The position numbers and the translations under genes are program-made. DNA of 34,648 nt. Origin: Thermoplasmata archaeon (GTDB taxonomy: Archaea; Thermoplasmatota; DAOVMN01). The DNA lies in assembly GCA_030630685.1 (NCBI GenBank), contig DAOVMN010000001.1, positions 1-34,648 of the forward strand, given 5' to 3'. Positions 9,005 through 34,179 of this stretch are shown one piece after another. How positions within the stretch are numbered: position 1 is the stretch's first letter; each line of letters starts with the position of its first letter. The notes beneath the pieces are model-generated. The model did not search any database. It had not been told where the DNA came from and was given only the letters and a program-made list of their open reading frames with translations.

Positions 9005-9206
9005 ACATCGAAGATTTCTGAGGACCGGCTGAGTGCGAAGCCATGAGGAAGCGAAGCTTCCGATTGCCGGTTGACGCAAAGCGTCGATAAGCCATGAGGA
9101 ACGAAGTTCTGAGTGGCGGTTGAGTATGCAATACTCGATAAGCACTCGGCAAGGCGTGAAGTGCGAAGCACAGAGCACCGGTTGAGCCTGAAGGGCTCGA
9201 CAAGGC
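9005..9206 (+). repeat. Tandem short-hairpin array B (about 8 hairpins)
   Basis: Stems and loops read directly: GGAAGC-gaa-GCTTCC (9047-9061), GACGC-aaa-GCGTC (9073-9085), GAAC-gaa-GTTC (9099-9109), GAGTAT-gca-ATACTC (9122-9136), GTGC-gaa-GCAC (9161-9171), GAGCCT-gaa-GGGCTC (9184-9198). Linkers are conserved: catgag, ccgg(t/a)tga, tcga(t/c)aagg. Confidence 0.75.
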
Positions 9207-12105: not shown

Positions 12106-12156
12106 CCTTGACGAGTGCTTCGCACTCATCCGGCTCTCAGAATTTCATTCTTCATG
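12106..12156 (-). repeat. Single two-hairpin unit of the hairpin-array family, inverted orientation
   Basis: The reverse complement reads catgaa-GAAT-gaa-ATTC-tgagagccggatga-GTGC-gaa-GCAC-tcgtcaagg. This is the same linker grammar as arrays B, C and D. Confidence 0.65.
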
Positions 12157-12224
12157 CCTGCACCAAAAACCTGTGCGACCTCGCTCCACTCTGTTCCGCT
12201 CGGTCCCACTTTATTAAAAAAAGG

Positions 12225-12367: not shown

Positions 12368-12755
12368 GGGACTATGTTATAATTTAGCGAATAAGGCACC
12401 ACCCCTTCCTTATGTGGGATAGTTTATCTCCATAAATAGAATCCTAATCAGGCGGGTCGGAACCACACGGGGGGGGGCACCGGGGAGGCATGAGGAAGCG
12501 AAGTTCCGATTGCCGGCTAAACACGAAGTGTTCGTCAAGGAAGTACTCGGCAAGGCGTGCAAACTTATTTGCGCACCGATTGAATCCGCAGGATTCGATA
12601 AGGCATTCGGAAAGCAGTTCCGAATTCCGATTGAGGGCAAAGCCCTCGATAAGGCGGTGAGAAAAAATTCAGCCAGATTGGCATATAGAATCTTGTGAGT
12701 TTCTTATTCACTATGTCACTGACCTCCTTAATCACTGACTTACAACATAGTACCC
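12368..12755. mobile_element. MITE-like non-coding element: ~29-30-nt inverted terminal repeats bracketing hairpin array C
   Basis: gggactatgttataatttagcgaataagg (12368-12396) matches the reverse complement of 12726-12755 (gggtactatgttgtaagtcagtgattaagg). No ORF lies inside. Confidence 0.45.
12489..12654 (+). repeat. Tandem short-hairpin array C (6 hairpins)
   Basis: GGAA..TTCC (12494-12507), AACAC-gaa-GTGTT (12520-12532), GCAAA-ctta-TTTGC (12559-12572), GAATCC-gca-GGATTC (12582-12596), TTCGGAA-agcag-TTCCGAA (12606-12624), GAGGGC-aaa-GCCCTC (12633-12647). It shares 30+ nt blocks with array B. Confidence 0.75.
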
Positions 12756-20140: not shown

Positions 20141-20211
20141 GTTGCTCACCTCATGAAGAGGTCTTCATCCTTATCGACCCCTGCGGGGTCAATCGGAGTA
20201 AGAACAAGTTC

Positions 20212-21468
20212 TTACTCGTAATGAACCGCCAGGACATCAAGGGAGGCCACTTTGCATCCGGTTCCAAGGAAGTCGGAGATGCTCGGCTGGGTTCTTCCTT
20301 CGTCTCCGTGGATCAGCTCTTTAATATATAGGCCACTCTCACCCCTAATGGTGAACGCAGCTCGCTTACCCTTCTGCAGTTCACAGTTGATATTTATAAC
20401 TTTCTTCTCTCTGATAAGGTCGCTCCTTCTGTGGGAAACCCTTGCAGGGGTACGCTGATGGATCAATGTTCCAGAGAACTTCCTTATGAGTTCATCTATT
20501 TTTTCGGGTCCTACATCATCCTCGAATTCCACCTCTGCTCTATAGGTCTTCTCCGCTTTCTCATTCTTGATGCGACTTACATTATCGCGATTGGTGTACC
20601 TCAAATTATAGATCTCCACTCTACCCGACGCAGATGTATTCACCATCTCCCGCATCCTCTCAAGGTCTAACAGGCGTCTCTTTGGGTTGGAGATCTCGAG
20701 TATAAAGGGCCTTCCGTTTCCAAGCATCCGGGCATCGATATCCTCCCTGCCCATGCCGTGAAAGAGATGCCGTGTCCCCCCTGTTTCCTTGAGAAAGGCA
20801 TCACCAATAAGCTCCTGAACACTTGTCTGGTATATCTTGCCTGTGTGGTTGCAGTATTCACATCCCCTCCCCCTGCACCTCTTACAGTTCCAGATGGTCT
20901 GGGGGATAGTTCTGTCGAACTTCAGATACCTGCCGTAGATAAAGATCGGTGCAACCTGAAGAGTGACCGTGTCAAATCGCGTATCCACCACCGCAACGAT
21001 ATCGGGCCTCTCGAAGGATGCCTCTTTCTCGAGCCTTTCGAAAACCCTGATCCCTATCTCACGGTTGAGCTCGTTCTTTATGCCTTCGGCATGACTGGCG
21101 AGTGCGAATTCCTTCTGAAGTCCGGATTCTCTTTCAAGGATCTCCTCATCAACCACACTTCCGATAAGGAACGTTTCGAATTCATGGTCGGAAAGCGCAT
21201 CCACGACAAGGTCCACGAATTTGTTCAGCTCATTAAAGAGCCCTTTGCATAAGGCGCAATCCTTCTCCTCACCGCCCGCATGAAGGAACCTTGATTGTAC
21301 ACCCTCCACCTCTCCGTATTCTTCCGTCATTGCCAGGAAGAGTTTTATCGTTCTCCCCCTCTCCTCGTCCGTGGTGCCTGTCCCAAGCCTGCCAAACTGC
21401 CTACCGAGACATCGGTCGCAGAGCTGGCGCTTGGAAAGAGCATTCACCGTATCAAACAGGGATTTCAT
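20212..21468 (-). CDS. pus10: tRNA pseudouridine synthase Pus10
   Basis: N-terminal Cys pairs (CDRCLGRQ, CALCKG) and catalytic block HGMGREDIDARMLGNGRPF. Confidence 0.85.
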   Translation of the reverse strand: MKSLFDTVNALSKRQLCDRCLGRQFGRLGTGTTDEERGRTIKLFLAMTEEYGEVEGVQSRFLHAGGEEKDCALCKGLFNELNKFVDLVVDALSDHEFETFLIGSVVDEEILERESGLQKEFALASHAEGIKNELNREIGIRVFERLEKEASFERPDIVAVVDTRFDTVTLQVAPIFIYGRYLKFDRTIPQTIWNCKRCRGRGCEYCNHTGKIYQTSVQELIGDAFLKETGGTRHLFHGMGREDIDARMLGNGRPFILEISNPKRRLLDLERMREMVNTSASGRVEIYNLRYTNRDNVSRIKNEKAEKTYRAEVEFEDDVGPEKIDELIRKFSGTLIHQRTPARVSHRRSDLIREKKVININCELQKGKRAAFTIRGESGLYIKELIHGDEGRTQPSISDFLGTGCKVASLDVLAVHYE

Positions 21469-31297: not shown

Positions 31298-32683
31298 ATG
31301 TACGAAACCATCCTTTCCTTGGAAGATCGAATCATCGAGGAGACCCTGAGTGCCGGGGCAGAATACTGTGACATTCGATACGAGTCCGTGCTCGGAACGG
31401 GCCTTGAGATGAAGAACAATGAGCTCAGGGAAGTGGTCCCTGGAAGGTCGGAAGGAGCGATCCTCAGGGCGCTTTACAAGGGCTCCTGGGGTATCTATTC
31501 GTTTAATGACGAAGAGGGCCTGGGGAAGGCTCCGGAAATGGTCATTCGGTTTGCCAGGGCCGCGGGATCAGGTGACTCTGTTATTGCATCGGTGGAGGTT
31601 CTCAAGAAAAATGTCGTTTGGAGACCCAAAGTAAAGCCCGAGGATATCCCGCTTGAAGAGAAGTATTCCCTTGTGAAGGAAGTGAACAAAAGGGTCATGG
31701 AAAAGGATGGGATCGTCGGGATCACCTCTGTTTACAGTGATTCAAGGATACGCAAGCGCATCGTGACCTCCGAGGGAACCGAGGCGGGGTACGAGTTGTG
31801 CAGAGGCCATGTCCAATCCCGGATCACGGCAAAGAGGGATGGACGTATCCTTGGGTATCGCACCCGTGTGGGAGCTACCGGAGGATTCGAGATCTTTTCG
31901 AACGAGGACCCTGTGGAAAAGGCCGTGAAAGGAGCGGAAGCCGCTCTGATAATCCTTGGAGCCAAAGTTTCACCATCCGGAAGGATGACGGTGATCGCTG
32001 ACCACGACCTGACCGGAGTGTTTGCACATGAGGCCGTTGGCCATACCACAGAAGCGGATCTTGTGGTATCCGGGGAATCTGTTCTGGAGGGTAGACTGGG
32101 AGAGGTTGTTGCCTCGGAACTCGTAACCCTTGTGGACGACCCGACAATTCCTAAAGGATTCGGTTCGTTTCCGATAGATGATGAAGGCATCGAAGCCAGA
32201 AGGAAGACCCTTATCGAGAAGGGAGTGCTGAAGGATTATATCCTGGACAGGGAGACGGCTGCCAAGCTTGGACTTGTGCCCAACGGAGGGGCACGAGCAC
32301 AATCCTATGCAAACCGTCCACTGGTCCGTATGTCGAACACCATGATCGAGGGCGGGGACCTGTCCCTCGAGGAGCTGATCGAGGACATGGATTACGGGGT
32401 CTATGCCAAGGGCACCCGCGGCGGACAGGTGGACACGGTTCGGGGTTCGTTCCAGTTCAGTGCCCAGCAGGCCTTCCTCATCGAGAAAGGGGAGATAACC
32501 ATACCTCTGAGGGATGTCTCACTCTCGGGTATGACATTGGAGACCCTGAGGAACATCGATGGTGTCGGGAACGATCCTAGACTCGGGGACCCGGGATTCT
32601 GCGGTAAGGGCCAGATGGTCCCTGTCGGGGACGGTGGACCGCATATCAGGATCCGCAATGCTGTGGTTGGGGGTGGTGTATGA
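31298..32683 (+). CDS. tldD: Metalloprotease TldD
   Basis: HEAVGH metal site, with family-wide similarity. GGAGGT lies 5 nt upstream of the ATG. Confidence 0.9.
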   Translation: MYETILSLEDRIIEETLSAGAEYCDIRYESVLGTGLEMKNNELREVVPGRSEGAILRALYKGSWGIYSFNDEEGLGKAPEMVIRFARAAGSGDSVIASVEVLKKNVVWRPKVKPEDIPLEEKYSLVKEVNKRVMEKDGIVGITSVYSDSRIRKRIVTSEGTEAGYELCRGHVQSRITAKRDGRILGYRTRVGATGGFEIFSNEDPVEKAVKGAEAALIILGAKVSPSGRMTVIADHDLTGVFAHEAVGHTTEADLVVSGESVLEGRLGEVVASELVTLVDDPTIPKGFGSFPIDDEGIEARRKTLIEKGVLKDYILDRETAAKLGLVPNGGARAQSYANRPLVRMSNTMIEGGDLSLEELIEDMDYGVYAKGTRGGQVDTVRGSFQFSAQQAFLIEKGEITIPLRDVSLSGMTLETLRNIDGVGNDPRLGDPGFCGKGQMVPVGDGGPHIRIRNAVVGGGV

Positions 32684-32688
32684 AAAAA

Positions 32689-32832
32689 CATGAGGATTTA
32701 TCCGAGTGCCGGATGAACACGCATGAGGCACAAAGTGCTGAACACCGATTGAATCCGAAGGATTCGACAAGGTCGTCAAGGCCTGAAGCACGAAGTGCTG
32801 ATGGCCGGATGACCTCGAAGAGGTCGTCAAGG
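32689..32832 (+). repeat. Tandem short-hairpin array D (5 hairpins) between the tldD stop and the conserved pmbA N-terminus
   Basis: GGA-ttta-TCC (32694-32703), GCAC-aaa-GTGC (32728-32738), GAATCC-gaa-GGATTC (32751-32765), AGCAC-gaa-GTGCT (32787-32799), GACCTC-gaa-GAGGTC (32811-32825). The linkers are the same as in arrays B and C. Confidence 0.75.
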
Positions 32833-32850
32833 ACAGATGACCTCCTTGCT

Positions 32851-34179
32851 ATGGGTAAGAGTGTCCTGAGGATCGCGGAAAAGGAGGTAGATGAGGCAGA
32901 GGTGTTCATCATCTCCAGTTCTGGAACCTCGCTTTCGATCGAGAAGAATAGAATAAAATCCGTTTCCGGGGCCGGCGGAACCGGCATCGCAATACGGATC
33001 CTGAAAGACAAGAAGATGGGATTTGCATACTGTACAGCTCTCGAGGGGGTCGTGCGGGCACTTAACCTCGCGATCCAGGGTGCCTCCATAGTACCTGAGA
33101 GGCCCTTCGAGTTCCCTGCCGATGAAAACTACTACACCATCCCGGACCTTCTTGACAGAAGAGTACTGGAGCTCTCCCCGGAAGACGGAATGGAGTTCGC
33201 CTCCCGGATGATCGACTCTGCCAGGGATGCCCACAAGGATATCGATGTCACGGGCGGAGGGGTCTCCTTCGGGGAGGAGGAGGTCGTCATAATGAACACA
33301 CGCGGGCTTGAGGTTTCGGAACACCTGTCCGGTATGAGTGCATCGGTGTACACGGTTTTCAACTCGGATCACCCCACCCCTGGTTTTGAATATGACTCCT
33401 CACATCTTATCCTCAAGGATTATGACGAAATCGGCAGGAAGGCGGCAGAATTGGCTGCAAAAGGACAGAACCCGGTGAAGATCGGGAGCAAAAAGATGCC
33501 GGTCGTGCTCAGGCCGGATGCGATCTCCAGCCTTTTTGAATTCATCCTCGTGCCCGCACTTTACGGGATCAATGTGGGTAAAGGGGAATCTGTCTACACA
33601 GGGAAACTCGGCACCGAGATAGCCAGCCCGGACCTCTCGCTTGTGGATGATCCAACCATGCCGGACGGGGAGAATGCCATGAAGATGGATGATGAGGGCG
33701 TCCCATCCAGGCGCATCGAACTCATCAGGAACGGCGTGCTCAAGGACTTTCTCTACACGATAAAAACAGGTGTAGAGTTCGATCACCCTTCCACTTCCAG
33801 CGGCCTCAGGGGTGGCTACACCTCTCCGGTATCCACCTCTGGCAGGAACATCATTCTAAAAGGGGACACCGAGGAGGAGGACACCCTCATTTCCGAGATC
33901 AAGGAAGGGCTTCTCATCCACGAGCTCATGGGAGCGCATACCTCCAACCCTGCTTCCGGGGATTTCTCTGTTACCGGCTCCATCCTTTTCAGGATCGAGA
34001 ATGGTGAGGTCACCGGTCCGGTCTCGCAGGCGATGCTCAGCGGTAATCTTCCCGAGTACCTGAAGAATGTTTCGGGGTTGGGGAATAATTATCGCAATCT
34101 CTCTGGAGGGCTCACCGCTGTTGGGTTCTACATGCCTTCGGTCAGGATAGAGGGGGTTCGGGTTACCGGGGAGAAGTAG
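32851..34179 (+). CDS. pmbA: TldE/PmbA metalloprotease partner
   Basis: Family similarity begins around LLAMGKSVLRIAEKEVDEAEVFI. The open frame extends to ATG 32680 through the hairpin array, so the true start is unresolved. Confidence 0.85.
   Translation: MGKSVLRIAEKEVDEAEVFIISSSGTSLSIEKNRIKSVSGAGGTGIAIRILKDKKMGFAYCTALEGVVRALNLAIQGASIVPERPFEFPADENYYTIPDLLDRRVLELSPEDGMEFASRMIDSARDAHKDIDVTGGGVSFGEEEVVIMNTRGLEVSEHLSGMSASVYTVFNSDHPTPGFEYDSSHLILKDYDEIGRKAAELAAKGQNPVKIGSKKMPVVLRPDAISSLFEFILVPALYGINVGKGESVYTGKLGTEIASPDLSLVDDPTMPDGENAMKMDDEGVPSRRIELIRNGVLKDFLYTIKTGVEFDHPSTSSGLRGGYTSPVSTSGRNIILKGDTEEEDTLISEIKEGLLIHELMGAHTSNPASGDFSVTGSILFRIENGEVTGPVSQAMLSGNLPEYLKNVSGLGNNYRNLSGGLTAVGFYMPSVRIEGVRVTGEK

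Follow-up and report, generated by a model that had tools for sequence, protein, structure and literature searches.

That palindromic repeats can lie in frame within protein-coding genes is already known from the Rickettsia palindromic elements (RPEs) and from the MJRE of Methanocaldococcus jannaschii. The latter, reportedly described by Suyama, Lathe and Bork in 2005 in FEBS Lett 579:5281, are said to be archaeal palindromic repeats that are mostly extragenic, with a few in-frame copies in coding regions. The RPEs (Ogata et al. 2000) are inserted in frame in conserved genes, according to two articles that summarise them (PMC10969869, PMC2229807), and one of these gives the product of an RPE-bearing gmk gene as translated and active (PMC2229807). 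Repetitive extragenic palindromic (REP) sequences seldom overlap coding regions (PMC12306157). Here we describe an array of small hairpins that lies at the 5' end of pmbA, directly downstream of tldD, on a contig of a Thermoplasmata archaeon (DAOVMN010000001.1 of GCA_030630685.1; C314 in our numbering). The window is this whole contig of 34,648 nt, from a metagenome assembly of 519 contigs that is 82% complete.

An in-frame array at the tldD-pmbA junction

Comparison with related genomes shows that the 144-nt array is a secondary insertion into pmbA, between codons 3 and 4. The best explanation of the locus, which we consider probable from the sequences and the modelled protein, is that the array was inserted in frame behind an ATGA start and is read through as an N-terminal insert of PmbA. 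The features of the locus are as follows.

31298 to 32683, plus strand: tldD (461 aa), the upstream gene of the pair; an open reading frame (ORF) with the Pfam domains PmbA_TldD_1st, 2nd and 3rd, and as long as the tldD beside the pmbA of homologue P0002
32680 to 32683, plus strand: ATGA junction, where the TGA of tldD (32681-32683) overlaps the ancestral ATG of pmbA (32680-32682)
32680 to 32688, plus strand: pmbA codons 1-3 (MKK), the part of the native 5' end that lies to the left of the insert, from DNA alignment
32689 to 32832, plus strand: hairpin array inserted in pmbA, 144 nt or 48 codons, in sense orientation, from alignment and a family match with nhmmer
32689 to 32721, plus strand: unit 1 of the array, 33 nt, a first-type hairpin and the 5' half of a second-type hairpin, 15 nt short of the common unit, by direct reading
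32722 to 32772, plus strand: unit 2, 51 nt, hairpin GCAC-AAA-GTGC, then hairpin TTGAATCC-GAA-GGATTCGA
32773 to 32781, plus strand: orphan 9-nt TCGTCAAGG, the 3' linker motif without a hairpin, by direct reading
32782 to 32832, plus strand: unit 3, 51 nt, hairpin GCAC-GAA-GTGC, then hairpin ATGACCTC-GAA-GAGGTCGT
32833 to 32850, plus strand: native pmbA codons T52-A57 (TDDLLA), the conserved start of helix 1; the same residues are found in homologue P0010 (TDDLLAMG)
32851 to 32853, plus strand: ATG of M58, a candidate alternative start; a Met stands at the equivalent position in P0010 and P0002 also
32833 to 34179, plus strand: rest of pmbA, the conserved body including the stop, with the Pfam domains PmbA_TldD_1st, 2nd and 3rd and 58-70% identity to homologues P0002-P0011

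The Pfam families PF01523, PF19290 and PF19289 are found in both TldD and PmbA and the genes are adjacent, which identifies them as a TldD/PmbA (TldE) metalloprotease pair. The pmbA ORF (32680-34179, 499 codons) is open across the array, with no in-frame ATG, GTG or TTG upstream of 32680, and the three PmbA_TldD domains of its product begin at residue 73. A preliminary description of this DNA had placed the tldD stop over an ATG at 32680 and had followed an open frame from there through the array into PmbA at M58 (ATG 32851); the ORF coordinates confirm the overlap, and the frame is open as described. The N-terminal peptide that it quoted as basic and rich in Ser and Arg is also correct, the 48 inserted residues comprising 9 Ser and 8 Arg, with an isoelectric point of 9.3 and a grand average of hydropathy (GRAVY) of -1.74. 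The array-coded part includes, for example, MNTHEAQSAEHR.

Thermoplasmatota metagenomes supply the closest homologues of PmbA, and ten of these were compared (58-70% identical, 452-457 aa). The N-terminus in all ten follows the pattern M-x-x-[I/T]-[D/E]-[D/E]-L-L-x-x-G, and the 48 residues are absent from every one. PmbA starts with MKDIEELLALGESALR in G001, a sister genome of the same family, and with MNDTDDLLAMGESVLR in P0010, while in the window MKK is followed by the 48 residues and then by TDDLLAMGKSVLR. The three tldD/pmbA junctions that were read in relatives are all overlaps: the P0002 contig has one of 1 nt, while G001 and the P0010 contig each have one of 4 nt (ATGA). In the DNA alignment, the window has GT ATG AAA AAA, then the 144 nt, then ACA GAT GAC CTC CTT GCT ATG GGT. 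The P0010 junction has GC ATG AAC GAC followed directly by ACA GAC GAC CTT CTT GCC ATG GGT, and that of G001 has ATG AAG GAT followed by ATC; the array is absent from both. The TDDLLA stretches of the window and P0010 show three DNA differences, all of them synonymous. Alignment of three junctions places the insert at exactly 32689-32832, between pmbA codons 3 and 4. The preliminary description had proposed this comparison, and had argued that an ATGA start followed by unrelated sequence of similar length in relatives would speak against an insertion. No such sequence is found there: the orthologues start at the conserved site and simply lack the insert. Its suggestion that an element had entered the extreme 5' end of pmbA is thereby supported by ten homologues and three junctions.

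Neither a target-site duplication nor terminal inverted repeats are present at the pmbA borders (ATGAAAAAA / CATGAGG ... GTCAAGG / ACAGATGAC). Likewise, no common target motif or target-site duplication is evident over about 100 array flanks, many of the nhmmer borders lying inside larger mosaics. Exact-match scans of metagenome contigs and of genome contigs with a 31-nt piece of the native 5' region of pmbA gave 0 matches in each. The sole near-identical pmbA record (P0001, on a 1633-nt contig of GCA_023132975.1) begins downstream of the array.

Short similarities were seen around the insertion site. The 9-mer GATGACCTC is found both at 32808-32816, in the array's last hairpin, and at 32836-32844, in the native pmbA codons that follow the insert. 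The native junctions GGGGCATGAAGG and GGAGCATGAACG of relatives (L002 and L031), together with the korA-korB junction GGGGGCATGAGG of the present genome (C338:5200-5220), resemble the start of the repeat unit, AAGGCATGAGG. It may be that a short similarity to the hairpin element at the target guides the insertion of arrays.

In the proposed mechanism, a three-unit, 144-nt array of a two-hairpin family was inserted between pmbA codons 3 and 4, at a site 9 nt downstream of the conserved ATGA where ribosomes finishing tldD would restart on pmbA. Since the array divides evenly into codons and the pmbA frame meets no stop in it, the ancestral coupled start remains usable. The ribosome would read through the hairpins and produce a 48-residue hydrophilic, Ser/Arg-rich insertion, predicted to be disordered, ahead of helix 1, leaving the remainder of PmbA unchanged.

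The hairpin family

The pieces of the pmbA array are 33, 51, 9 and 51 nt long, every one a multiple of three. The 201-nt stretch that holds it (32670-32870) has a predicted folding energy of -81 kcal/mol (z = -6.0), and 0 of 200 shuffles were as good. Elsewhere in the window the same repeat is found at about 9016-9206, 12106-12159 (minus strand), 12499-12655 and 20169-20233 (minus strand). The family unit consists of two small hairpins and conserved linkers, in the order (AA)GGCATGAGG - stem/loop/stem - YGAGTGCCGG - [A/T]TGA - stem/loop/stem - TCG[T/A]YAAGG. The stems vary among the copies yet remain complementary, and the A or T before TGA co-varies with the T or A after TCG. The first type of hairpin (for example at window positions 9092-9120) often takes the form GGCAT-GA-stem-loop-stem-GA-GTGCC, with an outer helix, a symmetric GA/GA internal loop and an inner helix; the two sides of this loop could form tandem G.A pairs.

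A profile search with nhmmer found 212 units in 136 arrays in this genome, with 0 arrays of mixed strand. Exact matches to CCGRWTGA-N11-TCGWYAAGG number 94 in this genome and 6 in G001; none was found in 39 further genomes from the same phylum, and the reversed pattern, as a control, gave 0. By these counts the hairpin family is lineage-specific, confined to this genome and a few copies in one sister genome. Rfam searches (the window at the gathering threshold, and 32600-32900 at E <= 1) returned nothing on the array and just two tRNAs elsewhere. The repeat family is probably a main cause of the fragmented assembly, since contig ends lie within 300 nt of 52 of the 136 arrays.

One full copy of a Y1_Tnp gene is present (C36:86-454, 158 aa, A/T-rich, IS200-like), flanked by its own palindrome, CCCCGCAGCAAGCTGCGGGG. 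Hairpin arrays on the same contig (C36:1319-2073) lie about 900 nt from it. No link of the family to REP-associated tyrosine transposases (RAYTs) was found in this genome, which is 82% complete; the Y1 transposase looks like an ordinary IS200 element with its own ends, not with array modules. A common hairpin variant, GACCCCGCAGGGGTC, and the transposase palindrome share CCCCGCAG, which may be a coincidence.

In-frame copies in other genes

Altogether 51 of the 136 arrays lie within open frames of 150 codons or more, 17 of these having at least 60 codons on each side, and at least six arrays within coding sequence were validated. The gene of a Hel308/Ski2-type helicase (C239:5684-6011, minus strand) holds two in-frame arrays between the segments for its two RecA-like domains, one at residues 224-262 and the other at residues 315-333. 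Hel308 structures in the PDB align to residues 12-220 and 346-791, the array segments being absent from the solved structures, and the Hel308 orthologue of G001 has gaps of 33, 10 and 16 residues opposite the array-coded segments. A MiaB-like radical-SAM gene (C168) carries an antisense copy between its UPF0004 and Radical_SAM domains. Deep within an 843-codon membrane-protein ORF (C62), RMSHDAQSAEWRLNPKDS is encoded by the same module, in the same frame, as RMNTHEAQSAEHRLNPKDS of pmbA.

The arrangement at pmbA recurs at other overlapping genes. In the fni-idsA pair (C365:3078-3234, minus strand) an ATGA overlap is followed, just after the idsA start, by an in-frame sense array of 153 nt. The predicted product begins MTVKSTRNGR, continues with about 51 array-coded residues (three 51-nt units) and then reads TELETFIGNTAEEIR; no in-frame ATG, GTG or TTG occurs in idsA after the array until codon 98. 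The idsA product of G001, which is 77% identical, reads MTSNTVENDNLSELEEFIKHSAEEIR, and the array is absent. In korA-korB (C338:5212-5470, plus strand) an ATGA overlap is followed by an array of about 252 nt in frame with the native MSTKFLNTTGLPYCKGCGHH. A search for korB in G001 gave only paralogue-level matches (39% identical), which do not fix the borders of the korB insertion. Two of the three overlapping pairs with arrays encode partners of heteromeric enzymes (TldD/PmbA and KorA/KorB). Placement just inside the downstream gene, with the frame kept, is as expected if coupled translation must be preserved. Among the long sense arrays that lie between long ORFs of the same strand, three of four are fully open (pmbA, idsA and korB); the fourth, on C280, precedes a gene with its own Shine-Dalgarno (SD) motif and start.

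Other in-frame arrays (C62:2903-2987, C118:886-941 and C84:619-677) are found right after a transmembrane segment and Arg/Lys stop-transfer residues. These arrays would be in the presumed cytoplasmic tails of surface proteins, a location that may be tolerant. Very long proteins with GNGLTN repeats also hold arrays in their repeat regions (C360:4528-4591, C415:57-111, C288:2-52 and C363:8784-8845).

The likelihood of an open frame by chance

Among the 21 other long arrays (at least 130 nt), 5 of 63 sense frames are free of stops (7.9%), compared with 43% of the antisense frames. The conserved CATGAGG and GG[A/T]TGA motifs put TGA into two of the three sense frames. Just one of the three sense frames of the pmbA array is open, namely that of pmbA. 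For comparison, 30% of random 144-nt windows of the genome are open, and the value of (61/64)^48 is 10%. The modal spacing of units is 51 nt or 17 codons (11 of 28 spacings), with 15 of the 28 spacings being multiples of three (p = 0.02), and of the sense frames of the canonical 51-nt unit exactly one is free of stops; it encodes roughly HE-RS-E-RM-SK-SSR. As the 51-nt unit keeps phase and has one open frame, an array of nothing but such units, placed in random phase, would have a probability of one third of being open. The chance of an open frame for the pmbA array alone is about 0.08-0.33, and is weak evidence. The preliminary description had put this chance at a few percent; that figure was roughly right, but it needs widening to the range given here. 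The null model covers openness only, a separate factor of 1/3 for an in-frame length having been dropped because 51-nt units keep phase. At the 7.9% rate, the probability that at least three of the four junction arrays are open is 1.9e-3, a post hoc and approximate value.

These properties of the unit also allow a bolder proposal: that a 51-nt unit with one open sense frame, and with mostly open antisense frames, is an adaptation for settling after -4 overlaps in packed operons, where it would be translated and would preserve coupling, with disordered N-terminal tails or coupling-dependent RNA gates as by-products. We regard this as rather doubtful.

Choice of the start codon and alternative explanations

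Sequence signals and a structural model both make it likely that translation of PmbA runs from 32680 through the array, and does not start at M58. The ATG at 32680 holds the ancestral site of coupling, which relatives conserve, and a G-rich, SD-like GGGGGTGGTG (GGTGGTG) lies just upstream of it. In this genome, the sequences ahead of long ORFs show a 4-5 fold enrichment of SD motifs. The alternative is that the array is a structured intercistronic spacer, with an unproductive ATG at 32680, a coincidentally open frame, and a PmbA that starts at M58 and lacks 9 native residues. This is unlikely in our view, although the C280 array, which separates two genes of which the downstream one has its own SD and start, would be a precedent for it. 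The 25 nt upstream of ATG 32851 (GTCAAGGACAGATGACCTCCTTGCT) contain no SD motif; they include ACCTCC, which is the sense of the rRNA 3' end and not its complement. No A/T-rich, promoter-like box is found near M58 either, the array offering just ATTTAT about 150 nt upstream and no T-run longer than 3. Gaps of about 20 nt all but do away with coupling by termination and reinitiation (Huber et al. 2023, PMC10666635), and because M58 lies 167 nt beyond the tldD stop, a coupled start there is disfavoured. In the AlphaFold2 model of PmbA (mean predicted local distance difference test score, pLDDT, 90.3), residues 1-45 score below 50 and the score is 96 from residue 51. Helix 1 spans residues 50-66, so that M58 lies in the middle of it, and a start at M58 would entail loss of the conserved TDDLLA / [DE][DE]LL motif. 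A start beyond the array is also at odds with idsA, which has the same architecture without a downstream start, and with the openness of three of the four junction arrays against a baseline of 8%. The automatic gene caller chose the 499-aa form of PmbA, and this was not counted as evidence.

Several points weigh against translation through the array and favour, in part, a start at M58. This codon is available and in frame, and Met is native there in P0010 and P0002. A PmbA that lacks the 9 native residues might still work, and that the TDDLLA codons are intact tells little if the insertion is a recent one. Strong hairpins, which begin 9 nt after the start codon at 32680, could hamper initiation there. 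The open frame on its own is weak evidence, its chance rising to as much as one in three for the pmbA array with units that keep phase. The junction cases were found post hoc, making the P value approximate, and the assembly is fragmented (519 contigs). An explanation that turns on RNA appears quite improbable to us: both starts would be used, or the array would act mainly as RNA, such that pmbA needs a tldD ribosome to open the hairpins or the PmbA:TldD ratio is tuned, the peptide being a by-product. The strong structure of the array (z = -6), the position of family arrays directly after three overlapping start/stop junctions, and the co-variation of stems among copies, which suggests that structure is maintained at the nucleic-acid level, are all compatible with such a role. 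Relatives manage without the array, however, and its many unrelated contexts, in both orientations, are better fitted by a passively tolerated selfish repeat. It is highly improbable that the array is an artefact of assembly, or is cut from the mRNA like an intron, which would make the frame irrelevant. The repeat does disturb the assembly, as noted above for the arrays within 300 nt of contig ends; however, each flank agrees with the orthologous junction down to the single base, the length of the insert is exactly 48 codons, and neither a bulge-helix-bulge-like motif nor an Rfam match is evident on it. Intron-like excision was rejected on a further ground: the validated in-gene copies (Hel308, the MiaB-like gene, idsA and korB) are all stop-free and in frame, which would be needless if they were excised.

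Comparison with known systems

What is new here is the lineage, the modular family, and the way its arrays recur, with the frame kept, just within the downstream member of overlapping gene pairs. A compact archaeal genome appears to absorb a spreading hairpin repeat even at overlapping genes, and the reading of selfish DNA as protein, known from Rickettsia and from one report on a methanogen, would extend to the Thermoplasmatota and to an element built as a modular array. As for annotation, automatic trimming of start codons and N-terminal extensions is to be avoided in such genomes, and it should be borne in mind that these repeats break assemblies.

The element most like the present one in behaviour is the RPE. 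By the published accounts of RPEs, both are short, hairpin-forming repeats that are found between genes as well as in conserved genes, where the frame is kept and a hydrophilic peptide is added, and orthologues lack the insert. A multi-copy hairpin repeat, in-frame and stop-free genic copies, and orthologues without the insert (for pmbA, Hel308 and idsA) were all found here. RPEs are also portrayed in those accounts as tolerated rather than required, and by analogy the pmbA array would be translated and tolerated, rather than bypassed by a start at M58. The two differ in that an RPE is, as described there, a single long-stem element of 105-146 bp, whereas modular arrays of two alternating small hairpins, with a variable number of units, are found here. 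Three of the present copies lie directly after overlapping start/stop junctions. Rickettsia is bacterial and the present genome archaeal; the likeness is one of behaviour, and a relation in sequence is not expected.

The MJRE differ in host, being found in the Methanococci and not in the Thermoplasmatota, and they are likened to the present family by their behaviour, not by sequence. To our knowledge, neither an array architecture nor placement at coupled junctions has been described for them.

REP sequences and the bacterial interspersed mosaic elements (BIMEs) that they form share with the present family the many small G+C-rich hairpins with conserved flanks and compensatory changes in the stems, and also the mosaics at gene borders and in operons. 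The REPs of a BIME alternate in orientation (PMC12306157), however, whereas the units of each array described here are all co-oriented, and with at least six validated arrays in coding sequence the present family is not an extragenic one. Intragenic fusions of miniature inverted-repeat transposable elements, or MITEs, such as ERIC, BOX and the cyanobacterial MITEs, are comparable in that small, non-autonomous repeats are occasionally fused in frame with host ORFs (PMC10969869, PMC2229807). The element at pmbA differs from these in being an array of modules without fixed ends, and without terminal inverted repeats or a target-site duplication.

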